Source: an uncultured Alphaproteobacteria bacterium (lineage in GTDB: Bacteria > Pseudomonadota > Alphaproteobacteria > Rs-D84). From it: a stretch of 64,000 nt of DNA. The DNA is taken from contig CALXMA010000004.1 of the NCBI GenBank assembly GCA_944389345.1, positions 14,374-78,373 of the forward strand. Direction: 5' to 3'. A program made the position numbers and the translations under genes. Shown here one piece after another: positions 9,007 through 59,771 of the stretch. Every line of letters begins with the position of its first letter. Position 1 is the first letter of the stretch. The notes beneath the pieces were generated by a model that worked only from the letters and a program-made list of their open reading frames with translations, searched no databases and had not been told where the DNA came from.

Positions 9007-9408
9007 ATGCAAAAAGTATATGAACTGAAAAATATCGATGAAACGCGTGCGTGGGCACGGGATTTTGCAAAAACACTGCGTGCGCCGTGTGTTGTTGCGT
9101 TGCATGGTGATTTGGGTATGGGAAAATCTGAGATTGCACGAACAATAATTCAGACCTTGCGTGGAACCGATACCGTCGTCCCCAGTCCAACATTCACAAT
9201 CGTACAGAACTATGATGGAATATCACATTTTGACCTGTATCGTATAGAAGATAAATCAGAGTTGGTTGAAATCGGTTTGCCGTATGCAATTCAAAACGAT
9301 ATCACGTTAATAGAATGGCCAGAAATTGCATCTGATATTTTACCGGATAATACAATTCATGTGTATTTAACCGGGGATGGCGATATGCGAAAACTGGTTA
9401 TAGAATAA
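9007..9408 (+). CDS. tsaE: tRNA threonylcarbamoyladenosine biosynthesis protein TsaE (P-loop ATPase YjeE)
   Basis: 133 aa with ...VVALHGDLGMGKSEIAR... and TFTIVQNY...HFDLYR. It starts 4 bp after the uvrB stop. Confidence 0.85.
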   Translation: MQKVYELKNIDETRAWARDFAKTLRAPCVVALHGDLGMGKSEIARTIIQTLRGTDTVVPSPTFTIVQNYDGISHFDLYRIEDKSELVEIGLPYAIQNDITLIEWPEIASDILPDNTIHVYLTGDGDMRKLVIE

Positions 9409-9416
9409 GTTAAAAA

Positions 9417-11204
9417 TTATACAGTTTTTGATTTTTTCAGCAGACTTTGTACCGCCAATGGAAAATCAGCACTGTTGGCCAGGTATGAACCACTGACCAA
9501 TAAATCAGCGCCGGCGGCCCAGCATTTCTGGGCCGTTTGTGCATTTATGCCACCGTCCACAGATATCAAGTATTTGAATCCGCCACGTTTGCGTGCCGTA
9601 TTCAAAATCGAAATCTTGCGCAGGCATGATTCTTGGAATTCTTGGCCCGCAGAACCGGGTGCAACCGCCATAATCATAATTTCATCTATTTCACGTAATA
9701 TCGGTTCCAGTATTTTAATCGAAGAATCCGGATTCAGCGCAATCCCGGCACGACGACCAGATGCGTGGATTAATTTTATCGCAGAACGTACCCCGGATGT
9801 ATTTGTCGATATGATAATCGTATTTGCACCGGCGCGTATTGCGTCTGCGGCCCAAAATTCGGGACTTTCCGTCATCAGGTGTACGTGCAAATGTGCCGTT
9901 GTATGTTTTCGTATGTATTGTAATTCTTCGATACTGCCACGTATGTTTTCAACGTACAGGCCGTCCATAATGTCGACGTGTATCATTGAAATTCCGCCCG
10001 ATGCAAACATAGAATATGTTTCCGGGCGCGACATGTCAAAGCACAATGTACTGGGCAAAACAGGAATAAATTTAGCGGTATTGTTCCGGCGACGTTTGCC
10101 AGTAAACAGCGATGTTATGCGCGACGTGATGTTATGTATGCGCTGACTGCGTGCCAGGTATGCATTGATATGGGCGTTTTCGCGCGACCAGATATATTTG
10201 AACAACGATTGTAACGTGCCGTCGCGCGCGATGTTTTTAACCGGCAGTCCAAATTCGTTTTCTATGAATTCGGATATAGTGTCTATTTCCGAACCACCGC
10301 CAGACAGAATTATCTGTGTCGGGCGACGACGTTGGATTTCCGGACCACAGTGAATGCGTATCTGGGAACAGATTTCAACCATAATTGGTAAAATAACATC
10401 GTTTATGTCCGCACGCGAAAAATCATATTCTGTGTCCGCGGGGGTAAAGCGGTCCATGTCTTTGGGCAACATTGTTGCAACGTTATGTTTTATCCGCTGG
10501 GCGTCTGCGAATTCCAGGCCAAATTTATTCGCGATTTCATTCGTTATATTTGTTCCGCCGATTTCCAGTTTTTTATGAAACATAGGGCCACGGTCTGTCC
10601 AAATTGATACCGTGGTAAATTGGGCGCCCAAATCTATGAACAATGCCGTCGTTTTTTCAGGGCGCAGAACAGACTGTTGTAAAAACTGAGAATCATAAAT
10701 CGCCAGTGGTTGAATGTGTGCCTGGTGTAAAATGGATATTATGTTTTCCAGCGCATCTTTGGAATAAAATATTACACCGAACAGTGATGACAACTGGGTA
10801 TCAATGTATCCAACGGGCGAATTTAAATCCGGTGCGCTGGGGATTTTATAGCGCAATGGAAACATATGCATAGGAAAATATCCATCCGGACAAGATATAC
10901 TGGCAATTTGTGCACTGACGTCCGATGCGGTTATTTTATGTTCGCCGGGCCATGTGGTGTTTTTTTGTTGTTTTTCAAATATGGATGGCCCCAGGTTGCC
11001 CGTTATATATGCGCCGTCAAAATGTTCCCCAATTTTATGTTCCAGTTCGTCAATCACAGATTTCAGTGCAGATACCGTATCCGTACTGTCCACCGTGTGG
11101 ATTGCAGAATCTGTAATGCGACCGGATCGTATATGGTATGCCGTGCCACGGACACCACTTGTCCCCAGGTCCAGACATAAAAAAGCAGAATCTAATAAAT
11201 TCAT
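9417..11204 (-). CDS. ftsA-rpe: Apparent in-frame fusion: short actin-like cell-division protein FtsA (N-terminal ~380 aa) + ribulose-phosphate 3-epimerase (C-terminal ~215 aa)
   Basis: The N-terminal part has ASKHA/FtsA-like motifs: LCLDLGTSGVRGTAY, FIDLGAQFTTVSIW...LEIGGTNITNEIANKFGL and IILSGGGSEIDTISEFIENEFGLPV. It lies directly downstream of ftsQ. The C-terminal part is unmistakably Rpe: SGGISMIHVDIMDGLYVENI..., HLHVHLM, ...MAVAPGSAGQEF and ISVDGGINAQTAQKCWAAGADLLVSGSYL. There is no stop codon between the two parts, so the single ORF is 595 aa. Confidence 0.7.
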   Translation of the reverse strand: MNLLDSAFLCLDLGTSGVRGTAYHIRSGRITDSAIHTVDSTDTVSALKSVIDELEHKIGEHFDGAYITGNLGPSIFEKQQKNTTWPGEHKITASDVSAQIASISCPDGYFPMHMFPLRYKIPSAPDLNSPVGYIDTQLSSLFGVIFYSKDALENIISILHQAHIQPLAIYDSQFLQQSVLRPEKTTALFIDLGAQFTTVSIWTDRGPMFHKKLEIGGTNITNEIANKFGLEFADAQRIKHNVATMLPKDMDRFTPADTEYDFSRADINDVILPIMVEICSQIRIHCGPEIQRRRPTQIILSGGGSEIDTISEFIENEFGLPVKNIARDGTLQSLFKYIWSRENAHINAYLARSQRIHNITSRITSLFTGKRRRNNTAKFIPVLPSTLCFDMSRPETYSMFASGGISMIHVDIMDGLYVENIRGSIEELQYIRKHTTAHLHVHLMTESPEFWAADAIRAGANTIIISTNTSGVRSAIKLIHASGRRAGIALNPDSSIKILEPILREIDEIMIMAVAPGSAGQEFQESCLRKISILNTARKRGGFKYLISVDGGINAQTAQKCWAAGADLLVSGSYLANSADFPLAVQSLLKKSKTV

Positions 11205-11213
11205 TTTTGTGTT

Positions 11214-11954
11214 TTATTTTACCAAGATACGGGCGTCATCGCGCATATCTATGATTTCCAGGTCTTTGGATAAAATTTGGTGGTTTTTATCCAATACAAT
11301 CAAACTGGCCATTGCGGTTTCAGGATTCTTTTCCGGCAACATTATCGTTATACCGCCCGTTGTATGAACGTTCCAACGTCTGTGTTCAATCCATTCAATA
11401 TAATCCAGGTCGTCAATAATCCCCATCGCCGCGTTAGTTATTTCCGATACATCTGGGGGTAATTCACCACGAAATACGACCGTGCCAGCCGTGCGTGTAT
11501 CAGATGGGCGATTGACGATTGTCCCGTCCGCAGACAGTGGGTAATACATTTCGCCATCTGTCCATTGGGCAACAGCCTGGTGTAATTGGACGCGTACAGA
11601 CAGGTTGCCGTTCGGCATTCTGCGTACAGATGAATTGCGCACACCCGGTGTGGCCATAATACGCTGGTTAATTTCGTCCAGGCGTGCCTGGTACGAATGT
11701 GTATTTGGGGCAATCGCAATCGCCGTCGCGATTTGGGTTAAATCCTTGTTCGGGGTGTCCGCAGACAATGATATTGTACGTATGTTGGCATTCGGACCAC
11801 GTCCGGTATATGTCAAAATAATACGTGTTGATAAATACACAGCCAAAACAATGGCTATGAAAAAATACAGCCAAAACCAGATAGAACGTTTCATGCGTTC
11901 AATTATATCATAAATTATTTTTGTTGGAAAGTGCGGGCGCAAATTAATTTGCAC
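11214..11954 (-). CDS. ftsQ: Cell division protein FtsQ (POTRA domain)
   Basis: 246 aa. It has an N-terminal TM helix (IWFWLYFFIAIVLAVYL) followed by a POTRA-like region, and it sits immediately upstream of ftsA. Confidence 0.75.
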   Translation of the reverse strand: MQINLRPHFPTKIIYDIIERMKRSIWFWLYFFIAIVLAVYLSTRIILTYTGRGPNANIRTISLSADTPNKDLTQIATAIAIAPNTHSYQARLDEINQRIMATPGVRNSSVRRMPNGNLSVRVQLHQAVAQWTDGEMYYPLSADGTIVNRPSDTRTAGTVVFRGELPPDVSEITNAAMGIIDDLDYIEWIEHRRWNVHTTGGITIMLPEKNPETAMASLIVLDKNHQILSKDLEIIDMRDDARILVK

Positions 11955-12324
11955 GCAACAGGTATCCGCGTCTGAACATACATTTGCGGTACGAACCCAC
12001 GGATTTAGATGTCGTGTTGCGTGGCACGGACAGCAAAGACCGTTGGCCCACGTCGCGATATTCGTTCGATTGGAATGTTACCCATAACCCGTCCCAGTCG
12101 GGCATCATACTGCTTTGGTTCGGGGACAATAATTTTGCAATTCGGGAACGGGGCATGTATGACGGGCGGTCTATGCCCAGGCATGCCTTGTGATCACGGA
12201 CAAATTGTTCCATTGTGACGGATTCGTTTTCCCAATTCAAAATCGTTGCGTCATCAATACTGCCCCGGTTCGCAGATGCGCATGCGGTCAACAATAATAA
12301 TAACGCAATGTATTTAATTCTCAT
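11944..12324 (-). CDS. Hypothetical lipoprotein
   Basis: 126 aa. It has a signal peptide with the lipobox LLTAC (MRIKYIALLLLLTAC|ASAN) and overlaps the ftsQ start by 11 bp. Confidence 0.55.
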   Translation of the reverse strand: MRIKYIALLLLLTACASANRGSIDDATILNWENESVTMEQFVRDHKACLGIDRPSYMPRSRIAKLLSPNQSSMMPDWDGLWVTFQSNEYRDVGQRSLLSVPRNTTSKSVGSYRKCMFRRGYLLRAN

Positions 12325-12407
12325 GTTTTGTATTATAATTTAATTGCCTTTATGGGGCAATAGTTTTTATAATGTATCAGAATGTATCATATTATGGGAA
12401 AGGAATT

Positions 12408-12734
12408 ATGGCACTGACAGTTCAGAATTTTATTAAACTGGCAAACCTGTATAATCAGATGACGATGGTTATGTCTGCGATTTGTGTGCAAAAGGGTGGA
12501 ATCGCAATCGAAAATTATGCCGGACGATATTTCTTGGCCGATGTGTTGGAATATGTTTATGAATATGGACGGCGATTGATGGAATCTGGGCGGGCCAGTG
12601 TTCCGGCGGATGTCGCCGATGTTATTCGGCGGTTTGGTGAACAGTATAATCGGGTCAAGGATTTAACAACACCCACCCAGAAACCAATATATGAAATGAC
12701 ACTGGAAGAATTTGAACGGATTATGAATATTTGA
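12408..12734 (+). CDS. Hypothetical protein (108 aa)
   Basis: The start is taken at MALTVQNF because a GGAAAGGA ribosome-binding site precedes it. I recognise no family. Confidence 0.4.
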   Translation: MALTVQNFIKLANLYNQMTMVMSAICVQKGGIAIENYAGRYFLADVLEYVYEYGRRLMESGRASVPADVADVIRRFGEQYNRVKDLTTPTQKPIYEMTLEEFERIMNI

Positions 12735-12755
12735 ATATAAAACCAAGGGCACAAA

Positions 12756-14099
12756 ATGAAAATAATCAGACACTTGTTTAATCTTTGCGCGCTGGTCGGT
12801 GGCGTCGGGTTGTTGTTTGGTTGCACACCGCGCCAAGAAAACGTCCCACAATATGATACACTGAATGTCGTAGAAAATTTTGTCATAGATGAAAATTCTG
12901 TGCCGATTTTTCCGAAAAAGGCCGCGTTGACAACCGATACCGCGCAACGGTTTTCCATAGAATTACCAAAACGCTGTACGGTCGATTGGAATAACCAGGC
13001 CGTCGTTTCCGTTGTTCCCGAAGAACCTATTGAAATTGTGCGCTTGGGTGTTGGTGATGAATTACCAGAACTGGCCGTGTCGGACTATGAATTTCGTCAA
13101 CTGACCGTGAAAGAGGCGTTGGATAAATTATTAGAAGGCACAAATATTTCGGTAATAGAAGATGGCGAATTAACGGAAACTATATCGGGGTCTATTACGT
13201 CGGGTAATTTGGCGGATTCTGTGGAATTGATGTCAAAAATGGGGCGGGCGTATTATTCGTATGACGCAGAAAACCAGGAAATACATCTGGACCATCGGGC
13301 AAAGTGGTTGTTAAAGATGCCGAAAAATGAAAGTATTATAATGGCGCTGTTGGATGCAATGCATGGCGCAGATATGCGGAACTTGTTGGTGGATTGGCAA
13401 GACAAGACCGTCGTTTTCGAAGGAAATTATCAGACCGAACGCGAAGTCGCGAAAATATTGGCAGATGTGGCGTCTAAGAAATATATGATTGCGTGGGATA
13501 TTGATGTATATCGTGTGTATCCGCGTACGGATAATCCTATTATATGGATGAATTTATTGCCGGCGTTTGGCGATAAAAATGTCAAAATGTCTGTGCCGGG
13601 TGTTGTGGGGCGCGCGTTGGTCGTGGGACCAGAAATTAATACCAAGACGTTGCAAGAATTTTTATCGCAACAATCTAATGTTGTGTTGATTTCCCAGGGT
13701 ACGTTCGTAATTCCAAACGGATGGCAATCGCGGTTTGATATTGGGCAATGCAGTAAAGAAGACAGACTGGAAACAGACCTGGTCATCGGGGCCAAGGCAA
13801 CGTACGGCGATTTCGGTGGCAAGAATAAAATTGATGCGAAAATAGTTTTACGTACCAGCAATGGGGAACTGTCATCGTTTACTATACCGTCCGATGTTGG
13901 TGATAACTATGTGATTATTGGTATACCAACGCATTCATTTGTGACAACGCCAGAAACGTTAATCAGTCCATTCGCGGAACTGGTTGTGTTTATGTCGCCA
14001 CGTATTATTTCTATTGTTGACGCAAATACAACGCCGATTGCAGATGGTACAGAAGTACCACTGGTCGGTGATGCGTTGCGTAGTTTTCTGAGTGAATAA
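12756..14099 (+). CDS. Lipoprotein with secretin-like C-terminal region (uncertain), co-transcribed with lolCD
   Basis: 447 aa. There is a signal peptide with a lipobox (LLFGC|TPRQ). A middle segment, ...LTVKEALDKLLEGTNISVIEDGE..., resembles secretin N-domains. A C-terminal segment, ...GTFVIP...DLVIGAKATYGD...ELVVFMSPRII, resembles the secretin C-domain motif (E-L-l-i-f-i-t-P-r-i) but is shorter than a canonical secretin. Its stop overlaps the lolC start. Confidence 0.5.
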   Translation: MKIIRHLFNLCALVGGVGLLFGCTPRQENVPQYDTLNVVENFVIDENSVPIFPKKAALTTDTAQRFSIELPKRCTVDWNNQAVVSVVPEEPIEIVRLGVGDELPELAVSDYEFRQLTVKEALDKLLEGTNISVIEDGELTETISGSITSGNLADSVELMSKMGRAYYSYDAENQEIHLDHRAKWLLKMPKNESIIMALLDAMHGADMRNLLVDWQDKTVVFEGNYQTEREVAKILADVASKKYMIAWDIDVYRVYPRTDNPIIWMNLLPAFGDKNVKMSVPGVVGRALVVGPEINTKTLQEFLSQQSNVVLISQGTFVIPNGWQSRFDIGQCSKEDRLETDLVIGAKATYGDFGGKNKIDAKIVLRTSNGELSSFTIPSDVGDNYVIIGIPTHSFVTTPETLISPFAELVVFMSPRIISIVDANTTPIADGTEVPLVGDALRSFLSE

Positions 14100-14109
14100 G
14101 GAATCTGTT

Positions 14110-15363
14110 ATGTTTTCAAGGTTGGAACGAAAAATCGCATTCAGATATTTGGCCGCAAAAAAACGCGGTTTTGGTTCTGTTATATCTTGGGTGTCGCTGA
14201 TAGGGATTACGTTGGGGGTGGCGACACTGATTGTGGTTATGTCTGTTATGGGCGGTTTTCATGATACGCTGTTGTCGCGTATCGTTGGTATGAATGGGCA
14301 TGTTGTTGTTTATCACCAGGATGGTGCAATTACGGATTATGACTTTTTAATTGATAAAATGCGCCAAAACAAGGTGGTGGCAGAACACGCAACCGGAATT
14401 GTGCCAATCGCCGAAGGTCAGGTTATGGCCACCGCAAATGGAAATAATACCGGGGCCATGATACGCGGTATACGTATGTCTGATTTGGCGAAAAAGGTTG
14501 ATACTGGTACACGAATTTATGGCAAGCCTTTGGATAAAATTACCGATGGTGAATTGGTTGCGGGGGCGTCATTAACACGGGCGTTGCGTGTTGGTATGGG
14601 GGACAATATTTCATTGGTTTCGGCCAATGGGGCAACCCCAACACCGTTCGGGTCTATGCCACGGATTATGGCGTATCCAGTTATGTCTTCGTTCTTTATG
14701 GGAATGTATGAATATGATTCAGGTTATATTTTTATGCCATTGGATACGGCGCAAAAATATCTGAATATACCAGGGGCCGTAACGCATATTGATTTGTTCT
14801 TGGATAATCCCGAAGAAACGACAGACGTTCGCGAAGCGTTGACACGTCTGTTGCCTGATGGTTTTGTTGTGCGTGATTGGCGCGAATTGAATCGCGGGTT
14901 TGTTGGCGCATTACAGGTTGAATCAAATGTTATGTTCTTGATTTTGATGCTGATTGTTATTGTGGCCGCGTTTAATATTGTGTCCAGTTTGGTTATGTTG
15001 GTCAAAGATAAATCCAAAGATATTGCCGTGTTGCGGACGTTTGGTGTGTCGCGTCGTTCTATGATGAAAATATTTATCTTGTCCGGGACCAGCATCGGAA
15101 TTCTGGGGGCGTTTTTTGGTACGCTGTTTGGTGTTTTAATTGCGATATATATTGAACCTATACGGCAATTTTTCCAGTGGGCAACCGGGCGCGATTTGTT
15201 TCCGGCGGAATTGTATTATTTGTCAGAACTGCCATCGAAATTGGTTTTGACCGATGTTGTTGGAATTGCGTTGATTGCCGTGTTGTTGGCGTTTTTGGCA
15301 ACGCTGTATCCCGCGTGGAAGGCCGCCAGTACAGACCCTGTGGATGTGTTGCGCAATGAATAA
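14110..15363 (+). CDS. lolC: Lipoprotein-releasing system transmembrane permease LolC/E (single-permease type)
   Basis: It reads MFSRLERKIAFRYLAAKKRGFGSVISWVSLIGITLGVATLIVVMSVMGGF, which parallels the E. coli LolC N-terminus. It has the MacB-like periplasmic domain and a C-terminal FtsX helix bundle. The start is chosen at the Met with an AAGGA ribosome-binding site. Confidence 0.85.
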   Translation: MFSRLERKIAFRYLAAKKRGFGSVISWVSLIGITLGVATLIVVMSVMGGFHDTLLSRIVGMNGHVVVYHQDGAITDYDFLIDKMRQNKVVAEHATGIVPIAEGQVMATANGNNTGAMIRGIRMSDLAKKVDTGTRIYGKPLDKITDGELVAGASLTRALRVGMGDNISLVSANGATPTPFGSMPRIMAYPVMSSFFMGMYEYDSGYIFMPLDTAQKYLNIPGAVTHIDLFLDNPEETTDVREALTRLLPDGFVVRDWRELNRGFVGALQVESNVMFLILMLIVIVAAFNIVSSLVMLVKDKSKDIAVLRTFGVSRRSMMKIFILSGTSIGILGAFFGTLFGVLIAIYIEPIRQFFQWATGRDLFPAELYYLSELPSKLVLTDVVGIALIAVLLAFLATLYPAWKAASTDPVDVLRNE

Positions 15364-15379
15364 AGAAAGGAATACAAGA

Positions 15380-16090
15380 ATGGCGAACATATTGAATTCT
15401 TTGTCAAAGGTACCAAAGGGCGACGTTGTGTTGTCTGTGCGCGATATTAAAAAGACTTTTATCGAAGGTGGACAACCGTTGCATATCTTGCGCGGGGGCG
15501 GATTTGATTTACGACGCGGGGAAATTATTGCGCTGGTTGGGCCGTCGGGCAGTGGTAAATCCACGTTGTTGCAATGTGTTGGTTTGTTGGATAAACCAAC
15601 CGGGGGCAGTATTTTGCTGGCGGGGACGCCTGTGCAGAAAATGGATGATGAAATGCGTACCATGATGCGTCGGCGCAAGATAGGATTTGTTTACCAGCGA
15701 CATAATTTACTGGCGGATTTTACGGCGTTGGAAAATGTTGTTTTACCCATGTTGGCAAATGGTGTGGATGAACGTACGGCGTCTGCGCGGGCAATGAAAT
15801 TGTTGCAATCGGCCAATGTTGCACACAGGGCGTCTCATTTGCCGGGGGAAATGTCGGGCGGGGAACAGCAACGTACCGCCGTCGCACGGGCGTTGGCAAA
15901 TGATCCGGAAATATTGCTGGCTGATGAACCAACCGGCAGTTTGGATCCGGCACATGCAACCGCTGTGTTTGATTTGTTGTTGGATTTGGTGCGCAAGAAA
16001 AAAATGGCTATGTTGTTTGTGACGCATGATATGAATTTGGCGTCGCGTGCAGACAGAAAAATTACAATCAATGACGGGATTGTGGAATAA
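15380..16090 (+). CDS. lolD: Lipoprotein-releasing system ATP-binding protein LolD
   Basis: ABC ATPase motifs are present: Walker A GPSGSGKST, the LSGGEQQR signature and Walker B ILLADEPTG. The start is at MANILNS (15380) with an AAAGGA ribosome-binding site. The ORF track begins upstream inside lolC. Confidence 0.9.
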   Translation: MANILNSLSKVPKGDVVLSVRDIKKTFIEGGQPLHILRGGGFDLRRGEIIALVGPSGSGKSTLLQCVGLLDKPTGGSILLAGTPVQKMDDEMRTMMRRRKIGFVYQRHNLLADFTALENVVLPMLANGVDERTASARAMKLLQSANVAHRASHLPGEMSGGEQQRTAVARALANDPEILLADEPTGSLDPAHATAVFDLLLDLVRKKKMAMLFVTHDMNLASRADRKITINDGIVE

Positions 16091-35136: not shown

Positions 35137-36234
35137 ATGGCAAAAAAAGAAGTCGCAAAAGATGTTTCGGCACCGGCAAAAAATCCGGCGTTGGAATCTG
35201 CGTTGGCACAAATTCAAAAGCAATTCGGTAAAGACGCAATTATGAAAATGGGCGATGGGTCCCAGCAGGGGATTGAGGCTATTTCGTCCGGGTCTTTGGG
35301 ATTGGATATCGCGTTGGGAATTGGTGGGTATCCGCGCGGGCGAATTGTTGAAATTTATGGTCCGGAAAGCAGTGGTAAAACCACACTGGCATTGCATGCC
35401 GTGGCCGAAGCGCAAAAAAAAGGTGGGACTTGCGCATATATTGATGCGGAAAATGCGTTGGATCCGTCGTATGCAAAAAAACTGGGTGTTGATGTCGCAA
35501 ATTTAATTATATCCCAGCCGGATTCCGGGGAACAGGCGTTGGAAATTGCCGATACGCTGATTAAATCTGGGGCGGTTGATGTTGTTGTTATCGATTCGGT
35601 TGCGGCACTGGTGCCCAAGGCGGAATTAGAGGGTAATATTGGTGATTCTTTTGTTGGAACAACCGCGCGGTTGATGTCGCAGAGTTTGAAAAAATTGGCG
35701 GGGTCTGTGTCGCGCAGTAATACGCTGTTAATCTTTATTAATCAAATCCGTATGAAGATTGGGGTTATGTTTGGAAACCCGGAAACGACATCTGGGGGGA
35801 ATGCGTTAAAGTTCTATGCGTCGGTGCGTCTGGATATTCGTCGCACGGGTCAGATTAAGGATAAAGAAAACGTTATCGGTAATGAAACGCGTGTTAAAAT
35901 TGTTAAAAACAAGGTTGCGCCACCATTCCGTACCGTCGATTTCAAAATTATGTATGGCGAAGGTATTTCCCGTATCAGTGAAATTCTGGACATGGGGGTA
36001 AAGTACGATTTTATCGAAAAAGCCGGCAGTTTTTATTCTTATAATAATGAACGTATGGGCCAGGGTGAAAATAATGCGCGTCAATGGTTGCGCGATCACC
36101 CAGATGTTCAACAGGAATTGTTAGATAAAATTATGGCGCGCGCAAATGGTATCGCCGAAGAAATGACAACGGGGCCGGCCGATGACGATGATGTTGTCGG
36201 ACAGGATGTGGCGCCGGTTGAAGGGGATTTATAA
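35137..36234 (+). CDS. recA: Recombinase RecA
   Basis: Walker A is GPESSGKTT. Further motifs are ...[17 protein letters not shown]..., the L2 loop region ...[35 protein letters not shown] and an acidic C-terminal tail. The start is taken at MAKKEV (AAGGGGAA lies 6 nt upstream). Confidence 0.97.
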
Positions 36235-36247
36235 AAAAGGGGTAAAT

Positions 36248-37153
36248 ATGAATTTGGCCAGAATTTGGACTCTGTCGGGTGTGGTTTTGCGTGGGCATGT
36301 GTTGAATTGGTTTTGGCGGGACCGTGCCGTGCGTCATGATATTCGTGGCGATGTAATAGGAACGGCGTTGCCAAAATATTTTCGGCGCTATTTATCAGCA
36401 GTTGAACGTATGCCCGTCAGAAGTGTGGTCAAAGACGATGCAAACGAAAAAATATTTACCATCTGGTTACAGGGCGAAGACAATGCGCCACCGTTGGTCA
36501 AGGCCTGCTATCGCAGTGTGCGAAAGCATTGCAAGCAAGAATTGGTGGTGTTGGACGAAAAAACGTTGCCACAATATATTACTCTGCCAGATGTAATTAT
36601 GAAAAAACGCGCCCAGGGAAAAATTAAAAACGCGCATTTCGCGGATATTTGTAGGGTGGAATTATTATATAAGTATGGCGGTTTTTGGTTGGATTCAACC
36701 GGATTTGTTACCGCACCAATTCCTGATTGGATTGTGAATGAAGATTTCTTTGTGTTCATGGCGGGGCACGCGGGCAGTCCGTACAGTTTTATACAAAACT
36801 GTTTCATTCGGGCGCGTCGGGGTGCGTATTTGCTGGATGCGTGGCGGGCAATGATTCTGGATTACTGGACCCATGAAAACAGCAACTTTGATTATTTTAT
36901 GCACCAATTAATGTTCAAGACATTGGTCATGTATGACGAACGTGCAAAAAAAGAATTCGCCAAAATGCCACATGTCGACCAAGATCCGACCCATGCGCTG
37001 TGGTGGGAATATTGTGATAAGCCGTTTAATCAAAAAACATTTGATTCTGTTGTGGCGCCCGTGTTCTTTCAAAAGACTACGTATGCCCAGGCTAAAAATC
37101 CAATCCCGGGCAGTTTCGCAGATGTTATGATTAATAAAATGAACCAAGACTGA
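36248..37153 (+). CDS. Capsular-polysaccharide-synthesis-like glycosyltransferase (DxD sugar-binding type)
   Basis: It has ...IFTIWLQGEDNAPPLVKACYRSVRKH... and ...YKYGGFWLDSTGF..., which resemble the Caps_synth/Gly_transf_sug family. The start is at MNLARIW (AAGGGG ribosome-binding site). The ORF track start lies inside recA. Confidence 0.6.
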   Translation: MNLARIWTLSGVVLRGHVLNWFWRDRAVRHDIRGDVIGTALPKYFRRYLSAVERMPVRSVVKDDANEKIFTIWLQGEDNAPPLVKACYRSVRKHCKQELVVLDEKTLPQYITLPDVIMKKRAQGKIKNAHFADICRVELLYKYGGFWLDSTGFVTAPIPDWIVNEDFFVFMAGHAGSPYSFIQNCFIRARRGAYLLDAWRAMILDYWTHENSNFDYFMHQLMFKTLVMYDERAKKEFAKMPHVDQDPTHALWWEYCDKPFNQKTFDSVVAPVFFQKTTYAQAKNPIPGSFADVMINKMNQD

Positions 37154-37170
37154 TGCGGGGGGAAATAGGT

Positions 37171-38205
37171 ATGCCGGAAATTTCTGTGATTATCCCTGTG
37201 TACAATGTGGAAAAGTATCTGCGTCGTTGTTTGGACAGTTTGTTGGCCCAGACATTTACCGATTGGCATGCGATATGTGTAAATGACGGCAGTGTGGATA
37301 AATCTGGGGAAATTTTGGCCGAATACGCACAACGCGATTCGCGTTTTACCGTGGTGAATATTCCAAATTCTGGGCCCGCATGTGCGCGAAATGTTGGTAT
37401 AGAACGGGCCCAGGGAAAATACGTAATGTGTGTTGATGGGGATGATTTTATTCATCCCCAGACAATGGAAATCGCGCATTTCTTGGCCGTGCGGGATGGG
37501 TCTGATATTGTGTCTTTTACATATGACAGATCGTATCGTCCTTATTTAATGGTGCGATATAAATTGGGGTTGGGGATAGAAAATATCGAACCGCTGGGGA
37601 TTCGGCGTCGGTATCGGCCCGCGGCGGTGCGGACGTTGGTGACGGATGATATTTTTGCCTATGCGACAGAACAGACGCATAATGCATTTAATCCAAAGCG
37701 CAGGTGGCTGATTAAGCATACGCAGGTTTGGAAAAATTTGTATAGGCGCGATTTAATTGCAGATGTAAAATTTATTGATGGAATTTTGTACGAAGATTTC
37801 CCGTGGTGGTCGGCGGTCATGCTGAAAAATCCGCGGGTGACAATTGCGCCGTTGCCGTTGTATTATTATGTGCCGAATTTTGGCGGAATATTCTTGTCCG
37901 CCGGCCAGATGCGTGCGTTTGATGGAATGTGTACGGGTGTGCGGGATACTTTTTTGTTGTACCAGGCCAAAGCGAGCCCGTATCAAATGCAACAATGGTC
38001 CAAGAACTTTAAGTGGTATTTTATCAAGTGGGCATTTAATAAAATTAAATATTTTACCAGTGTGGCGGATTTGAACAAGGCGCGCAATTGGTTCAGGGAA
38101 CTGGACAGAATTGGGGCGTTGGATAGTCCGCATAACAAAAAAACAAAAAAACTGCGTCAGAAAATTTGCGCGTTTATAAAGGATTGCCACCAAAATGACA
38201 GATGA
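37171..38205 (+). CDS. Family 2 glycosyltransferase (GT-A), paralogue 1 of 3
   Basis: It has ISVIIPVYNVEKYLRRCLDSLLAQTF...ICVNDGSVD...MCVDGDDFIHP (DxD). The start is at MPEISV. The 3' end contains an A7-C-A7 tract (38138-38152). Confidence 0.85.
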   Translation: MPEISVIIPVYNVEKYLRRCLDSLLAQTFTDWHAICVNDGSVDKSGEILAEYAQRDSRFTVVNIPNSGPACARNVGIERAQGKYVMCVDGDDFIHPQTMEIAHFLAVRDGSDIVSFTYDRSYRPYLMVRYKLGLGIENIEPLGIRRRYRPAAVRTLVTDDIFAYATEQTHNAFNPKRRWLIKHTQVWKNLYRRDLIADVKFIDGILYEDFPWWSAVMLKNPRVTIAPLPLYYYVPNFGGIFLSAGQMRAFDGMCTGVRDTFLLYQAKASPYQMQQWSKNFKWYFIKWAFNKIKYFTSVADLNKARNWFRELDRIGALDSPHNKKTKKLRQKICAFIKDCHQNDR

Positions 38206-39244
38206 CAAACCAAAAATTTCAGTAATAATTCCAATATACAATGTGGAAAAATATTTGCGTCGCTGTTTGGACAGTATGTTGTCCCAAACATTTACCGATT
38301 GGCAGGCGATATGTGTAAATGACGGCAGTCCTGATAACTGTGGTGAAATATTATCAGAATATGCCGGACGTGATGGTCGTTTCAAAATAGTAAACAAAGA
38401 AAACGGTGGGCTGTCTGATGCGCGAAATGCGGGTATGCGTGTTGCAGACGGCGATTTTATTTTATTTTTAGACAGTGATGATTTTATTCATCCGCAAACA
38501 CTGGAAATCGCATATTTTCTGGCCACGCGTGATGGCACAGACATTGTTTCTTTTACCTATGATCGCGCGTTCAGAACGGAACTGATGGTGCGTAATAAAC
38601 TGGGGTTGGCGTGCGATGGGGTTATGCCGAAAAAATATAATCGTCGGTATCAGATTGCACAAATAAAAACGTTGGTTACCGACGACGTTTATGCGTATGC
38701 AACCGAACGCACCCATAATGCATTTAATCCAAAGCGCAGGTGGCTGATTAAGCATTGTCAGGTTTGGAAAAATTTATATCGGCGTGAACTGATTTCAGAT
38801 ATTCCTTTTATTAAGGGGATTTTATTCGAAGATTTCCCGTGGTGGTCGGCGGTCATGCTGAAAAATCCGCGGGTGACAATTGCGCCGTTGCCGTTGTATT
38901 ATTATGTGCCGAATTTTGGCGGGATTGTTTTGTCGGCTAAACAGTTGCGTATTTTGCACAGTTTGTGTGATGGTATGGAATATGCGTACAAGTTATACAG
39001 CACGCAGGCCACAGAATATCAGGCGCGTCAATGGAATTACAATTTTAAGTGGTTCTTTATAAAGAAGATTTTGCGTAAAACAAAATACTTGGATAATCGG
39101 GTGGATTTGAATTCTGCGCGGGAACGTGTTTGTGAATTGGAAAAAATTGGCGCGTTGGATAATCCGCCGTGTCGGTGGGCGCGACGTGTGCGGTGTCGTG
39201 TGTGTCATTTTATAAAGGATTGTTGTAAGCATGTCAAAGCGTAA
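38195..39244 (+). CDS. Family 2 glycosyltransferase, paralogue 2 of 3 (mosaic: 5' third identical to paralogue 3, central block identical to paralogue 1)
   Basis: It has KISVIIPIYNVEKYLRRCLDSMLSQTF...NDGSPD...LFLDSDDFIHP. The DNA at 38207-38511 is identical to 39243-39547, and 38828-38922 is identical to 37792-37886. Confidence 0.85.
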   Translation: MTDDKPKISVIIPIYNVEKYLRRCLDSMLSQTFTDWQAICVNDGSPDNCGEILSEYAGRDGRFKIVNKENGGLSDARNAGMRVADGDFILFLDSDDFIHPQTLEIAYFLATRDGTDIVSFTYDRAFRTELMVRNKLGLACDGVMPKKYNRRYQIAQIKTLVTDDVYAYATERTHNAFNPKRRWLIKHCQVWKNLYRRELISDIPFIKGILFEDFPWWSAVMLKNPRVTIAPLPLYYYVPNFGGIVLSAKQLRILHSLCDGMEYAYKLYSTQATEYQARQWNYNFKWFFIKKILRKTKYLDNRVDLNSARERVCELEKIGALDNPPCRWARRVRCRVCHFIKDCCKHVKA

Positions 39245-40253
39245 ACCAAAAATTTCAGTAATAATTCCAATATACAATGTGGAAAAATATTTGCGTCGCT
39301 GTTTGGACAGTATGTTGTCCCAAACATTTACCGATTGGCAGGCGATATGTGTAAATGACGGCAGTCCTGATAACTGTGGTGAAATATTATCAGAATATGC
39401 CGGACGTGATGGTCGTTTCAAAATAGTAAACAAAGAAAACGGTGGGCTGTCTGATGCGCGAAATGCGGGTATGCGTGTTGCAGACGGCGATTTTATTTTA
39501 TTTTTAGACAGTGATGATTTTATTCATCCGCAAACACTGGAAATCGCGCACAAGTACATTGTACAAAATAACGCAGATGTGTTTTTGTTTGGGTATGATG
39601 AAAAATCGCACCGTAAATTATTACGGTTGATGCGGGGCGGGTTTGATGTGTCGGGGTGTGTGCCGGGGGCGGTGAGCAGAAAATACAATATCGATGGCGT
39701 GCATGTGCACAAGATAAAAAAATTATTGTTTCACTGTACCGAACGAAATCGTACTGTGCGGGTTTTGCATCCTGTGCGTCGGCATTGTTTCCCGGTGTTG
39801 GCATTGTATCGACGTGATTTCATTTCTGATTTGCCGTTCGTGCGTGGAATTATATATGAAGATTTTGTTTGGTGGTCTTTATTGATTCTGCGTCGGCCCA
39901 AGACGGTTATGACAAAATTACCGTTGTATTTTTATATGCCGAATCCGACGTCTATATTAAATGCATCGCGTGCGTTGCGGGTGGTGAAATCATTATGTGA
40001 TGGAATTGGTATTGTTTACGATGCGTATTCTGTGAATGCGACGGGGCGCGAATTAAAGCATTATATGCGGGAGTTTTTGTGGCCGTTTACATTCATCGCA
40101 ATGCAACATGCACGCCAGATTACAGACGAAAAAGACCGGGCCATTGTGGCAGATAATTTGAAAAAATTATACAGCGCGGGTGTGTTTGATAATCCACCGA
40201 ATCGGCGCGCACGGCGGTATCTGGGGCGAATACGGGATTTTATAAATAACTAG
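39231..40253 (+). CDS. Family 2 glycosyltransferase, paralogue 3 of 3
   Basis: The N-terminal 100 aa are identical to paralogue 2. The C-terminal two-thirds have diverged (...VFLFGYDEKSHRKLL...). Confidence 0.85.
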   Translation: MSKRKPKISVIIPIYNVEKYLRRCLDSMLSQTFTDWQAICVNDGSPDNCGEILSEYAGRDGRFKIVNKENGGLSDARNAGMRVADGDFILFLDSDDFIHPQTLEIAHKYIVQNNADVFLFGYDEKSHRKLLRLMRGGFDVSGCVPGAVSRKYNIDGVHVHKIKKLLFHCTERNRTVRVLHPVRRHCFPVLALYRRDFISDLPFVRGIIYEDFVWWSLLILRRPKTVMTKLPLYFYMPNPTSILNASRALRVVKSLCDGIGIVYDAYSVNATGRELKHYMREFLWPFTFIAMQHARQITDEKDRAIVADNLKKLYSAGVFDNPPNRRARRYLGRIRDFINN

Positions 40254-41101
40254 ATTCTGGATTTTTGAAAGCGCGATGGAATTTTTACAACGCGACGCAG
40301 GCCGAACATCCCGGGTTTGTCGAATGCATATATTGGGCGTGCAAAAGTTTGTATGATGCGCGCGTATCGCATCCATTTTTCGTCGCGTACGGGCAGGGTG
40401 GATACCGCATTAATTGTTCCGTTCCCCCGACGGCGCAGGTGATTTACCCAATCGGGACCACGGGATTTGGCCTTGTTCAACAGCATCTGCATATCGACCG
40501 CACCAAAGTGTAACAAGTATAAGTTTTTATCAATGTGAAAATTGTGACCAGATATGCTGTGGAAACCACTGCCCCAATGGGCGGGGGTGGTTTTTACAAC
40601 AGGCTTGGTATATCTGGTGGATAACAGTGCATATTCACGTTGGGCCAGGATGGGTTTGTTGATGTCCAAAGTTTTTTCTGTGTTCGTGTTTTGACCAACG
40701 TCCAGTCCCAATCCCGATACCGATATATTTATGTCCAGGTCAGATAAATATTCGGCCAATGTTTTTTGTGTGTCTGGATCAACAACCAGAAATTCATCAC
40801 AATCGCAACCAATTACTATATCGTATGTTTTCAGCAATTTGTGTGCCAATGTGTTTATCAGTCCTATGCGATATTTGTCGCCATCGGCGCGCGACATTTC
40901 AACGTGCGATAATTTCTTTACATGGGCCGGACCGGCATTTTCAGGAATATTTTGATCCGTTCCATCCAGGTATATGTACAGGTTTTCACGACCAAATTGT
41001 TCCCCGTAATATTTTATCCAACGGGATAAAAAGAAATCGTCATTGCGGGCCATTGTTATGACCGCGATTTTTTTTTGTGTATGGTTTGTTGGATTGGTCA
41101 T
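40250..41101 (-). CDS. Putative GT-A-fold glycosyltransferase with A9 homopolymer at codons 9-12
   Basis: It has ...KKIAVITMARNDDFFLSRWIKYYGEQFG...YDIVIGCDCDEFLVVDPD (DxD-like). The start is taken at MTNPTNHTQKK. Nine consecutive A (minus strand) at 41068-41076 encode QKKI. Confidence 0.55.
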   Translation of the reverse strand: MTNPTNHTQKKIAVITMARNDDFFLSRWIKYYGEQFGRENLYIYLDGTDQNIPENAGPAHVKKLSHVEMSRADGDKYRIGLINTLAHKLLKTYDIVIGCDCDEFLVVDPDTQKTLAEYLSDLDINISVSGLGLDVGQNTNTEKTLDINKPILAQREYALLSTRYTKPVVKTTPAHWGSGFHSISGHNFHIDKNLYLLHFGAVDMQMLLNKAKSRGPDWVNHLRRRGNGTINAVSTLPVRDEKWMRYARIIQTFARPIYAFDKPGMFGLRRVVKIPSRFQKSRI

Positions 41102-41946
41102 ATTCCCTCGCCAAAAAGTTTGTGAAAAAAGTATCTGCAACTTCTGTATAATATTTTAATAGGATTTCGTGTTAAAAGCCAGTCTATATATTCCGTGCCG
41201 TATGCGTCGCGTGCGCTGGTCAGTATTATGTCGCGCAGGTCGGGGGATAAATGCGACAGGATATATGACAACTGGCCACCAAGACGGCCATAGTGGCGGG
41301 TGAACGCGACCTTTTTGAAAAATGGACATTTGGATTTATAGAAATATTTTACGTTGTTGTATATCTTGCGTCCAGGGGCCGTATACAGGTACGAAAATTT
41401 AATGTTGTGTGCAAACAACATACGGGAAAATCCTTGTTCGTAAAAATATGTTATCAGGCCTTTGTTTGGTTGACGTGATACAGATGTTATAAATTTATCA
41501 AACCAGTTTGATGCAAATACCGGTTTGCGCATACCAATAAACCAAGATTGGATATGCGGGTTTTTGCGATTCGCATTATATACCAAACCAAACGCGTCGC
41601 GATTCGTTGATTCCAGTTTTTCCAGCGCGGGTAATAATGGATTTACCGGGCCATATACCGAATCGTTTATCATATATACAAATTCATAATTGCCCAGAAT
41701 TCCCGTGTCCCGGGCATATATGTATGCGCGTTTATATGAACCAAAATCGTATTCACCGTGCCGGTGGGCCGATGCAAAGATTGTGTACGGTGCAACCTTG
41801 TGCATTTCTGTGTCTGGCACATCACTGTCCATAACCAGGATAACATCGCCAAATTCAGACAGGCTTTTTGCCATATAAACCAGCGATGCATCAACCACGT
41901 TTTTTGCATTATAGCCGGCCAATAAAAATAGTCGTCTAGATTTCAC
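41098..41946 (-). CDS. Polysaccharide-biosynthesis protein (rhamnan-synthesis RgpF-like / LPS biosynthesis, uncertain)
   Basis: 282 aa. It is hydrophilic with conserved-looking acidic clusters (...VILVMDSDVPD..., ...YMINDSVYGP...). It sits inside the glycosyltransferase locus, overlapping the upstream typA stop by 11 bp and the downstream glycosyltransferase start by 4 bp. Confidence 0.4.
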   Translation of the reverse strand: MKSRRLFLLAGYNAKNVVDASLVYMAKSLSEFGDVILVMDSDVPDTEMHKVAPYTIFASAHRHGEYDFGSYKRAYIYARDTGILGNYEFVYMINDSVYGPVNPLLPALEKLESTNRDAFGLVYNANRKNPHIQSWFIGMRKPVFASNWFDKFITSVSRQPNKGLITYFYEQGFSRMLFAHNIKFSYLYTAPGRKIYNNVKYFYKSKCPFFKKVAFTRHYGRLGGQLSYILSHLSPDLRDIILTSARDAYGTEYIDWLLTRNPIKILYRSCRYFFHKLFGEGI

Positions 41947-57503: not shown

Positions 57504-59771
57504 ATGGCAAAGCAATCTAAATTGTTGCCGGAACGCGTGTCTGGGACTTTGCGGTCGTTGGTAAAGCGTGTCTTGGGCGGGGCGTTATTGTTGGTCGCGT
57601 TATGGGCGTTGGTTAAGTTATTTTTGTTTAATCCGTATTTGGATGGAATTGGTGTCGCCAGTACGTTTGGTAATCAGACAACAATGGGACAGGTTGTCGG
57701 ATTCTTGCGGTATGTGTTCGGTTTTGTGCCGGCAATGTTTTTGATTTTGTGTGTGGCGCGATGGGGCGTGGCGTGGTTGTCTGGGTGGGATTCGGATAAT
57801 GCGCCAGAATACAATTTTATGCGGTGTTTTGTTGCGTTATGTATGGGGTCTGTGGGATTGGGGGCTTTGATGCCATCAGAAACGTTTGGTGGAATGGTCG
57901 GCGCGTTGGTTGCCACGGATATTACCAGTTTGTTGGGAACATGGGGCATTATTGTCGGCATTGTCGCGTTCGGATTGTTTTTATTGTTGGGGGGAAAGTT
58001 ATTACATATCAAGTTAGAACATATACGTGGTGCGATGCGTATGTTGTGGCACGGGGTGCGGTGGATTTTGTCGGTATTTCATTTGGTGCCGGCGAACGCA
58101 GATTCCGAATCGCAAGAATATGAATACGAAGAAGATGAAGAAGCAGAAGTTGATGAAGATTCGGATGCAGAACAGGTTGACGATGTGGCGCCCGCACGTG
58201 GTCGACGTGCGGGGGCGCGACGCAGTGCGCAACAGCGCGCAAAGTCTGTGTCGGGCGGACGCAAAAGTGTCAGTGCGCATGAATATCAATTGCCTGATAC
58301 GGCGTTCTTGGAATATTCTCATTTTGGAAAAAATGTTGTTACGCCCGAATTAAAGCGTAATGCCAGTGCAATGGAAATTCACTTTGCGGAATATGGTGTG
58401 GACGGCAAGGTTGTTGGTATCAGACCGGGGCCGATTGTCACCATGTATGAATTTTTGTTAAAAAGTGGTGTGCGTATCGCCAATGTGAACAAGGTTGTAG
58501 AAGATATGACACGCGCCATGGCCGCAACAAATATTCGAATCGCGCATATCCCCAGTACTCAATTAATCGGTGTTGAAATGGCGAATTTGAAACCACAAAT
58601 TGTGCGGTTTAGATCACTGGTTGAAAATGACGCATTCGTTAATTCCAGTTATAAGATACCGTTGGCGTTGGGGGTCAGTATCGGTGGTGATCCGATGTAT
58701 TATGATTTGGCCAAAATGCCACACATGTTAATCGCAGGGCGCACGGGGTCTGGGAAATCTGTGTTCGTGCAATCTATTATTACGTCTATTGTTTATCATT
58801 TTACGCCCGACAAGTGCAAGTTGATGATTATTGACCCCAAGGGTGTCGATTTTGGATTTTGGGATGATATTCCGCATCTGATAACGCCGATTGTAAAGTT
58901 AGACCCGAATGCCGCGGTAAATGCGCTGAAATGGGTTGTGAACGAAATGGAAAATCGGTACAAGCAATTACAAAAATTGCAGGCGCGAGAAATTGAAACA
59001 TATAATGAAACGGCCGCGAAAAAACGCGCAAATGGCGAACGGTTAACAGAACAGGTCGCCGTGGGTACCGACGAAGAAACGGGTGAATTGTTATTCGAAA
59101 CCCAAGAAGTAGATTTGTCTGATATGCCGTATATTGTTGTGATTATCGACGAAGTGGCTGATTTAATGGTTGTGGCAAAAAAAGAAGTCGAAGCGTATAT
59201 CCAGCGTATCGCGCAAAAGGCCCGTGCCGCCGGTATTCATTTGATTATGGCAACCCAGCGTCCAGATGCGACGGTTATAACCGGTGTGATTAAGGCGAAT
59301 ATCCCGACGCGTATTTCGTTCCAGGCGCGCAGTATTGTCGATTCTATGACCACATTGGGCGAAAAGGGCGCAGAACAATTATTGTCGCGTGGTGATATGT
59401 TGTTCAGCGAAGGTGGGCACAAGGCCGTGCGTATTCATGGGGCATTCATAGATGATAATGAACTGAAACGCGTGGGCGATTTCTTGCGCAGTCAGGGTGC
59501 GCCAGATTACGCCGACGGTGTGACCGATGGTGGTGCCGGGGCGGGCGGTATCGGGGTGCCCGGATTGCCCGGGGCAATTGGTGGCGACAAGGATGATGAT
59601 TTGTACAGCCAGGCCAAAGAAATTGTTTTGCGTGATAAAAAACCGACCATTTCATATCTGCAACGGCGATTGGGAATTGGGTATAACAAGGCCGCCAGTT
59701 TGATGGAACGGATGGAGGCCGACGGTATCGTCAGTGCGCCCGATGCCAAGAACAAACGTCAAATATTATAA
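57504..59771 (+). CDS. ftsK: DNA translocase FtsK
   Basis: It has N-terminal TM helices, an acidic linker (EEDEEAEVDEDSDAEQ), an ATPase domain (GRTGSGKSV, Walker B IVVIIDEVAD), and a C-terminal gamma winged-helix (...YLQRRLGIGYNKAASLMERME). Confidence 0.93.
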   Translation: MAKQSKLLPERVSGTLRSLVKRVLGGALLLVALWALVKLFLFNPYLDGIGVASTFGNQTTMGQVVGFLRYVFGFVPAMFLILCVARWGVAWLSGWDSDNAPEYNFMRCFVALCMGSVGLGALMPSETFGGMVGALVATDITSLLGTWGIIVGIVAFGLFLLLGGKLLHIKLEHIRGAMRMLWHGVRWILSVFHLVPANADSESQEYEYEEDEEAEVDEDSDAEQVDDVAPARGRRAGARRSAQQRAKSVSGGRKSVSAHEYQLPDTAFLEYSHFGKNVVTPELKRNASAMEIHFAEYGVDGKVVGIRPGPIVTMYEFLLKSGVRIANVNKVVEDMTRAMAATNIRIAHIPSTQLIGVEMANLKPQIVRFRSLVENDAFVNSSYKIPLALGVSIGGDPMYYDLAKMPHMLIAGRTGSGKSVFVQSIITSIVYHFTPDKCKLMIIDPKGVDFGFWDDIPHLITPIVKLDPNAAVNALKWVVNEMENRYKQLQKLQAREIETYNETAAKKRANGERLTEQVAVGTDEETGELLFETQEVDLSDMPYIVVIIDEVADLMVVAKKEVEAYIQRIAQKARAAGIHLIMATQRPDATVITGVIKANIPTRISFQARSIVDSMTTLGEKGAEQLLSRGDMLFSEGGHKAVRIHGAFIDDNELKRVGDFLRSQGAPDYADGVTDGGAGAGGIGVPGLPGAIGGDKDDDLYSQAKEIVLRDKKPTISYLQRRLGIGYNKAASLMERMEADGIVSAPDAKNKRQIL

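Follow-up and report, generated by a model that had tools for sequence, protein, structure and literature searches.

What does an uncultured bacterium encode where a division gene and a gene of central metabolism share one open reading frame (ORF) with no stop codon between them? The question is raised by the minus strand of a 64,000-nucleotide (nt) stretch of an uncultured Alphaproteobacteria bacterium (contig CALXMA010000004.1 of assembly GCA_944389345.1), which was analyzed as a whole and is referred to here as the window. At 9417..11204 an actin-like protein, FtsA, runs on into ribulose-phosphate 3-epimerase (Rpe). An earlier note on the letters of the window had offered three explanations: a genuine fusion protein, loss of the ftsA stop codon, or expression of rpe as a separate product from an internal Met. 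The reading favored here, to which we assign a probability of about 0.75, is that a complete rpe has been joined, in frame, to the 3' end of the lineage's orthologous ftsA, and that the two specify one polypeptide of ~65 kDa.

The fused open reading frame and its distribution

The ORF and the parts into which it was divided are listed below, with the evidence for each in parentheses.

9417..11204, minus strand: ftsA::rpe fusion ORF, 595 amino acids (aa) plus stop, ATG start (ORF listing, Pfam and NCBIfam, colinear full-length homologues)
10185..11204, minus strand: FtsA module, residues 1-340, predicted actin-like fold (TIGR01174, PF14450, PDB matches, Foldseek, motif conservation)
10761..10985, minus strand: predicted FtsA 1C (SHS2) subdomain, residues ~74-148 (AlphaFold2 [AF2] model, phmmer alignment to 7q6g, PF02491 in relatives)
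10071..10184, minus strand: linker, residues 341-378, with a putative internal membrane-targeting segment (AF2, hydrophobic moment, helical wheel)
9417..10070, minus strand: Rpe module, residues 379-595, predicted complete (beta/alpha)8 barrel (PF00834, NF004076, phmmer, Foldseek)
10032..10034, minus strand: Met391 codon, the internal start proposed in the earlier note (invariant; placed after strand beta1 in the alignment to 2fli)

The ORF listing and its translation contained no internal stop codon in 9417..11204. Using Pfam, FtsA (PF14450) was matched at residues 189-323, scoring 44.7 bits where the cut-off is 31.8; the match to Ribul_P_3_epim (PF00834) spans residues 387-575 and scored 153.2 bits (cut-off, 21.1). 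Using NCBIfam, residues 39-332 were aligned with positions 45-351 of the 371 in TIGR01174 (ftsA), with a score of 89.8 bits. This is under the equivalog cut-off of 175.85 bits, which we read as divergence in a fast-evolving lineage and not as exclusion from FtsA. For the other half, the Rpe subfamily NF004076 was matched over its cut-off (residues 383-589, 176.6 against 165 bits), and the Rpe equivalog cut-off of TIGR01163 was missed (155.5 against 212.6 bits). The description of the locus as a single 595-aa FtsA-Rpe ORF lacking a stop between its domains is thus borne out by all three sources.

When the full-length ORF was compared with 5.8 billion proteins, the hits comprised one cluster at 99% identity and at least 120 others at 57-65%, drawn from NCBI, ENA, JGI and Logan assemblies. 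All of the at least 120 clusters were 589-597 aa in length with both Pfam domains present, and those members that carried a name were called "ribulose-phosphate 3-epimerase" and came from Candidatus Enterousia or uncultured Alphaproteobacteria. A 40-member alignment was colinear throughout FtsA and Rpe, with a near-invariant block, F-I-P-[IV]-[LM]-P-S-T-L-C-F-[DN]-M, at the junction, seven residues of which were strictly so. Mean pairwise identity was 0.61 for FtsA and 0.77 for Rpe, and both halves are evidently under purifying selection, as judged from these identities. The linker was the least conserved segment (0.36), and among fused relatives its length always varied by whole codons.

To reach more distant relatives, the FtsA part alone (residues 1-380) was used as the query in an exhaustive HMMER search. 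The closest matches, at 25-43% identity, were mostly 542-623 aa in length, with shorter entries that included a partial record; FtsA of canonical length (mostly 390-440 aa) predominated only lower in the list, at 23-28% identity. A C-terminal Rpe was found by Pfam in eight of the 10 matches tested (P0122, P0127, P0132, P0134, P0140, P0141, P0146, and P0152). The other two were P0248, a long FtsA without Rpe, and P0126, a partial record from a cluster in which another member, of 592 aa, is named ribulose-phosphate 3-epimerase. When one genome for each GTDB species was scanned, 260 were found to encode a relative. Among the best 80 loci of these species-representative genomes, 77 contained a complete fused ORF of 588-597 aa, and one fused locus sits on a circular long-read chromosome (OZ007020.1; 958,618 bp). 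A genuine fusion, the first of the explanations offered, is therefore strongly supported by the same architecture across assemblies and down to ~25% identity.

The carriers of the fusion are gut bacteria according to the literature and NCBI taxonomy. In the literature, Enterousia is placed in the GTDB order Rs-D84, a placement given here for Enterousia alone; genomes of <1 Mb are reported, in which glycolysis is incomplete and the pentose-phosphate pathway is non-oxidative and lacks transaldolase (PMC12306168). Over the sequences sampled, the fused architecture is fixed in Candidatus Enterousia and related reduced-genome gut Alphaproteobacteria. No description of a fusion between FtsA and ribulose-phosphate 3-epimerase was found in the literature, and, as far as could be found, FtsA-Rpe is a new domain architecture of FtsA, assembled from two well-known families. 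In the NCBI and JGI records P0014, P0072, P0073, P0142, and P0284 the fusion is named "ribulose-phosphate 3-epimerase" with no mention of FtsA. As annotation gives the fusion this name only, gene-content surveys would wrongly score FtsA as absent.

The FtsA module, the linker and the epimerase module

The best PDB sequence match of the N-terminal part was the FtsA entry 7q6g (E value 3.5e-9, residues 73-338), followed by 3wt0 and 3wqt, with PilM close behind. An AF2 model of the fusion, computed with the 40-sequence alignment as input, had a mean predicted local distance difference test score (pLDDT) of 87.5. When it was compared with the PDB using Foldseek, the top 19 hits were all FtsA, from Staphylococcus aureus, V. 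maritimus, Thermotoga maritima, X. poinarii, and Escherichia coli, with target-normalized template modelling (TM) scores of 0.63-0.74 over ~350-390 columns. The ATP-binding motifs, namely D12, G14, and T15 (phosphate-1), D191 and G193 (phosphate-2), and G302-G304 (adenosine), were conserved family-wide. An AERIK motif, which we take to be the canonical FtsA motif of subdomain 2B, was also conserved in the 40-sequence alignment.

The earlier note had held that the 1C subdomain is lacking, and here it is contradicted. In the AF2 model a strand-strand-helix-strand-strand unit (strand 74-90, helix 93-101, strands 109-121/124-127 and 134-148) stands at the position of the FtsA 1C insert, which is specific to FtsA and sits within 1A where actin has 1B, and the phmmer alignment to 7q6g is gap-free across residues 86-187 of that chain and so through its 1C region. 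SHS2_FTSA (PF02491) was not matched by Pfam in the window protein itself; it was found in the fused relatives P0127, P0140 (44.4 bits), P0141, and P0146. Judged by these alignments and the model, residues 1-340 are a full FtsA with subdomains 1A, 1C, 2A, and 2B. A further stretch, MDRFTPAD..Y.FSR (residues 250-264; 10413-10457, minus strand), is invariant and lies in a loop of subdomain 2B with an AF2 pLDDT of <50. Strict conservation in a surface loop that appears to be flexible points to a site where a partner binds.

In the linker, AF2 predicted a long helix (residues 343-368) followed by a low-pLDDT stretch (370-377). The C-terminal part of the helix, R355-T368 (RIHNITSRITSLFT), is amphipathic, with I356, I359, I363, L366, and F367 inside a 100-degree arc of the helical wheel, and is followed by the basic GKRRRNNTAK. 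The hydrophobic moment of this part reached 0.65, a value that ranks within the top 2% for the protein; by the same measure the membrane-targeting helix of E. coli FtsA scored 0.78. In the majority of fused relatives a stretch of 11 residues with a moment of 0.6-0.8, in the top 1-3% of each protein, was followed by 3-6 Lys/Arg residues, as in IAQITKLFHRHKKIKKKK and, in P0140, WVQIKNWFEKHL. The amphipathic helix, with a moment of 0.65-0.82, and the polybasic run are internal in the fusion and not C-terminal. The membrane-targeting helix, which had been noted as apparently missing or replaced, has probably been kept internally as a helix plus basic stretch, with rpe appended after it.

The C-terminal module matched Rpe of Streptococcus pyogenes (2fli) with an E value of 1e-36 in phmmer, the alignment starting at residue 7 of 2fli, where APSILAADY stands opposite LPSTLCFDM. 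Using Foldseek, it was superposed on 2fli with a TM score of 0.90 and a root mean square deviation (rmsd) of 1.6 Å. The metal and catalytic ligands H409, D411, H442, and D550 and the phosphate-binding glycines were invariant in 40 Enterousia sequences, and all four ligands were kept in 21 of 23 divergent fused members. Most likely the module still interconverts ribulose-5-phosphate and xylulose-5-phosphate. Because only the non-oxidative pentose-phosphate pathway has been reported, the fused Rpe should be the route to ribose-5-phosphate and to precursors of 3-deoxy-D-manno-oct-2-ulosonic acid (KDO).

The position of ftsZ and the gene neighborhood

No tubulin signature was found in the six frames of the 64-kb window, and a tblastn search of the window with E. 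coli FtsZ gave nothing convincing (best E value, 2.2). With two tblastn queries, the E. coli and Caulobacter FtsZ sequences, no ftsZ was identified in 1.69 Mb of DNA made up of the window and 95 loci; these represent the same neighborhood throughout and show non-adjacency only. Likewise, none of the genes lying up to 10 kb from the fusion in the Pfam-annotated loci matched Tubulin or FtsZ_C, and no such gene was seen past the left end of the window. At a control locus with the canonical order murF..ftsQ-ftsA-ftsZ (P0248, locus L099), ftsZ was detected both by Pfam and by tblastn (E value ~1e-48). The observation that ftsZ does not follow ftsA, first made for the window, therefore extends to ~97 fusion loci. 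As ftsZ was adjacent in none of them, the separation of ftsA from ftsZ is, on the loci compared, a conserved feature of the clade.

The separation is not unique to the fused clade, since type VI secretion genes follow ftsA at locus L098. This locus encodes the FtsA of canonical length that scored best in the exhaustive search (P0150, 412 aa), in the order ddl-ftsQ-ftsA, after which come genes for VasE, DotU, an IcmF-like protein, and ImpA, and not ftsZ. Because FtsA, FtsQ, FtsI, and FtsK are strongly conserved, an ordinary FtsZ-based divisome is the default expectation. No paper combining FtsZ with Rs-D84 was found.

The fusion lies at the end of a predicted operon, the remaining features of which are as follows.

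11214..11954, minus strand: ftsQ, 246 aa, ending 9 nt before the start of ftsA::rpe (PF03799 FtsQ_DivIB_C, E value 1e-9)
11944..12324, minus strand: predicted lipoprotein, 126 aa, first gene of the operon, overlapping the start of ftsQ by 11 nt (signal peptide, lipobox-like LLLTAC)
12332..12360, minus strand: promoter-like TTGCCC-17-TATAAT upstream of the lipoprotein-ftsQ-ftsA::rpe operon (consensus scan, 10/12; a pattern match only)

The order ftsQ-ftsA-rpe on the minus strand, as described in the earlier note, was recovered with the PF03799 ORF upstream. Both the window and the fusion loci with Pfam annotation have ftsQ directly upstream of the fusion; at loci L014 and L015 an ORF of similar size without a Pfam match occupies this position. 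In the divergent P0140 (GCA_031549365.1) the order is ftsL-like, ftsI, ftsQ, ftsA::rpe, rpmB. The 126-aa lipoprotein ORF had no Pfam match, and an ORF of 117-129 aa is present at this position across relatives. Downstream of the fusion are the convergent tsaE (9007..9408, plus strand) and then uvrB. The stop codons of tsaE and ftsA::rpe are 8 bp apart (9408-9417), with no terminator-like hairpin between the two genes.

On the other side of the operon a divergent cluster (12372-16090, plus strand) encodes a ~120-aa ORF, a 447-aa ORF without a Pfam match, a permease of the MacB_PCD/FtsX type, and an ABC ATPase. A cluster of this type stands back-to-back with the lipoprotein-ftsQ-ftsA::rpe operon at most annotated fusion loci (L001-L007 and L010-L014), though at neither L008 nor L015, and may represent a system tied to division that resembles FtsEX or Lol. 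Farther along the window, ftsK is located at 57504-59771 and is directly followed by a 400-aa ORF (59869-61071, plus strand) without a Pfam family. Six genes for glycosyltransferases and polysaccharide synthesis (Caps_synth, three GT2, Glyco_tranf_2_4, and an RgpF-like gene) are located at 36182-41946, a large outlay on surface polysaccharide for a genome of <1 Mb. About 10 kb past the left end of the window (locus L096, 1-3601), a PilO-like/T2SSE/T2SSF cluster lies beside gyrB.

Readings of the fusion and comparison with known systems

In the favored reading, the fused ORF would be translated as a single ~65-kDa protein in which the FtsA module would continue to tether the division machinery to the membrane via the internal helix, and the Rpe barrel would sit at the divisome with ~10 residues between it and the membrane surface. 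Its most plausible origin would be that ftsZ left the cluster and that ftsA and rpe, then adjacent, lost the stop codon and spacer during genome streamlining. A role of its own may have been acquired later, either through cross-linking of FtsA by Rpe oligomerization or through coupling of the amounts of both proteins.

Several points weigh against this reading. The predicted TM score (pTM) of the fusion model was 0.59, against a mean pLDDT of 87.5, such that the relative orientation of FtsA and Rpe is not defined by the model. Membrane binding by the internal amphipathic helix is proposed from hydrophobic moment and charge, and in the most divergent fused members (P0146, P0147, and P0152) the linker is rich in Pro and Arg and shows no clear amphipathic helix. 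Cleavage within the poorly conserved, partly disordered linker is conceivable and would yield two separate proteins. Last, in place of the ligands H,D,H,D, P0134 has Y,T,H,C and P0131 has N,D,N,Y, and yet these two divergent lineages retain the fusion; an active enzyme may thus not be universal in the fused clade, and Rpe may serve a non-catalytic role. Both proteins keep a fused ORF of ~589 aa and its synteny, on contigs of up to 198 kb, and in P0134 (L012/L013, 10001-11770) the FtsA ATP-binding motifs are degenerate too.

These degenerate cases also bear on a different and unlikely reading, in which Rpe has been co-opted as a divisome module, as an oligomerization platform that clusters FtsA or as a pentose-phosphate sensor that tunes division, and its role as an enzyme is secondary. 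Free Rpe forms dimers or hexamers, and solved Rpe entries contain many chains of one sequence (12 in 2fli). Such a role would fit a fusion that has persisted through very deep divergence, in every case at the division locus, even where, as in P0134 and P0131, the ligands have degenerated. It would also fit the altered cell size of E. coli pentose-phosphate mutants, rpe included, some of which uncouple Z-ring frequency from growth rate (PMC5825171). However, every Enterousia sequence and 21 of the 23 divergent members have all catalytic ligands intact, and Rpe is the more conserved half (77% mean identity), as an essential working enzyme would be. The degenerate cases, moreover, depend on the alignment of fast-evolving sequences, and, with a pTM of 0.59, the model gave no direct sign of contact between FtsA and Rpe.

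A more far-reaching version, which we regard as improbable, is a rewired divisome core in which a membrane-held, oligomeric Rpe would scaffold or regulate FtsA; in its extreme form FtsZ would have been lost, with division carried out by FtsA-Rpe, FtsQ, FtsI, and FtsK. It is allowed because ftsZ was never within 10 kb in ~97 loci and because two lineages keep a degenerate Rpe.

It is very doubtful that the locus makes two products, with Rpe arising separately by initiation at Met391 or from an internal promoter and the full-length protein as a by-product. Met391 is invariant, and a promoter-like TTGACA-17-TATTCT was found on the coding strand at 10039-10011. No Shine-Dalgarno-like motif precedes Met391; none was detected in 86 ORFs at this codon or at the true ftsA start, so the test is uninformative and gives no argument against initiation there. 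However, Met391 follows the conserved PS(I/T)L..D of strand beta1, and since it lies past this strand a product starting there would be truncated, without beta1 and Ser385. Its invariance is that of the PSTLCFDM block as a whole, and F379, P381, P384, S385, L387, C388, and F389, just upstream, are invariant in the 40 sequences as well, as expected of parts of the enzyme. The promoter-like hexamers, for their part, arise from the codons for the conserved F-D-M and T-Y-S. RNA made from this site would begin downstream of Met391 and Met399, and comparable matches are common in the region (18, with 10.3 +/- 3.2 expected). The internal Met is accordingly an unlikely source of the main product, and initiation at Met391 is conceivable, in formal terms, for a minor one.

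Slighter still is the chance that the N-terminal module is another FtsA-like ASKHA protein, either the PilM of the nearby cluster resembling type II secretion and type IV pilus systems or a sugar-kinase-like partner of Rpe. PilM_2 (PF11104) was also above its cut-off (36.9 against 27 bits), the TIGR01174 score was under the equivalog cut-off, and the PilO-like/T2SSE/T2SSF cluster lies ~10 kb past the left end of the window. PilM nevertheless ranked below FtsA in Pfam, in the PDB sequence search, and in the fold search, where its TM scores were 0.50-0.65. Directly upstream in the annotated loci is ftsQ, joined in P0140 by ftsI and an ftsL-like gene, and P0140, a less-derived fused member, scored strongly on both SHS2_FTSA (44.4 bits) and FtsA (62.8 bits). 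The AERIK motif is kept in subdomain 2B, and no sugar-kinase family was matched by Pfam or NCBIfam. A PilM or sugar-kinase identity was thus rejected on the Pfam, NCBIfam, PDB, and Foldseek rankings and on the synteny of P0140, and the assignment to FtsA in the earlier note, made with a sugar-kinase-like ASKHA protein in mind as the alternative, is upheld.

Apart from the default suspicion that attaches to any unexpected fusion ORF, nothing specific favors an artefact, or the idea that the present genome alone has recently lost the ftsA stop codon in a pseudogene-like manner; the chance of this is negligible given the at least 120 clusters from NCBI, ENA, JGI, and Logan, the 77 of 80 best loci (OZ007020.1 included), the persistence of the fusion in members just 25-30% identical, and linker lengths that vary by whole codons only. 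Sequencing or assembly error is excluded because the same in-frame fusion recurs across hundreds of independent assemblies and deep divergence; of the stop-codon loss put forward in the earlier note, what may survive is an ancient loss as the origin of the fusion.

FtsA is among the most studied bacterial division proteins. Its C terminus is seen as a free helix that targets the membrane and switches polymerization. If the favored reading is correct, an order-level gut group seems to tolerate, and to have long kept, a 24-kDa enzyme on this C terminus, and an internal helix that still binds the membrane would constrain models of FtsA attachment and polymerization. The fusion would also serve as a natural "Rosetta stone" that ties the divisome to the pentose-phosphate pathway and make metabolic control of division directly testable. 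Its interest would rise sharply if FtsZ were absent or the Rpe domain were active in division.

Compared with canonical FtsA (TIGR01174; 1e4f and 4a2a of T. maritima, 3wqt of S. aureus, and 7q6d of E. coli), which binds the C-terminal peptide of FtsZ via subdomain 2B and recruits late divisome proteins via 1C, the fusion has the same predicted four-subdomain fold including 1C/SHS2, conserved ATP motifs, a gene position right after ftsQ, and a predicted amphipathic basic helix placed past the core via a short linker. It differs in continuing beyond this helix into a 217-residue enzyme domain, in being only 16-18% identical in structural alignments and under the TIGR01174 cut-off, and in not having ftsZ next to it. 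With free Rpe (PF00834 and NF004076; 2fli, 1rpx, and 3ovp) it shares a complete barrel (34% identity to 2fli at the rmsd given above), the His/Asp/His/Asp ligands, the Gly-rich loops that bind phosphate, and the Met cushion. Unlike free Rpe, the fused module has no start codon of its own, its beta1 is joined to the C-terminal helix of FtsA via ~10 basic residues, and the ligands are degenerate in two divergent fused lineages. PilM, the FtsA-like ATPase of type IV pili (2ych and 5eox), belongs to the same fold family, has a 1C-like subdomain, and is matched through PilM_2. It scores lower than FtsA in both structure and sequence, binds the N-terminal peptide of PilN, and has no membrane helix, whereas the context of the fusion is ftsQ (and ftsI) and not pilNOPQ.

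Several metabolic enzymes moonlight as division regulators, among them UgtP of Bacillus subtilis, OpgH of E. coli, and GdhZ and KidO of Caulobacter. The fusion resembles these in that an enzyme of central metabolism would be physically linked to the FtsZ/FtsA machinery. Those proteins, however, are separate and bind FtsZ reversibly according to metabolites, whereas here the link, known from sequence, is to FtsA and covalent, and would make the coupling permanent.

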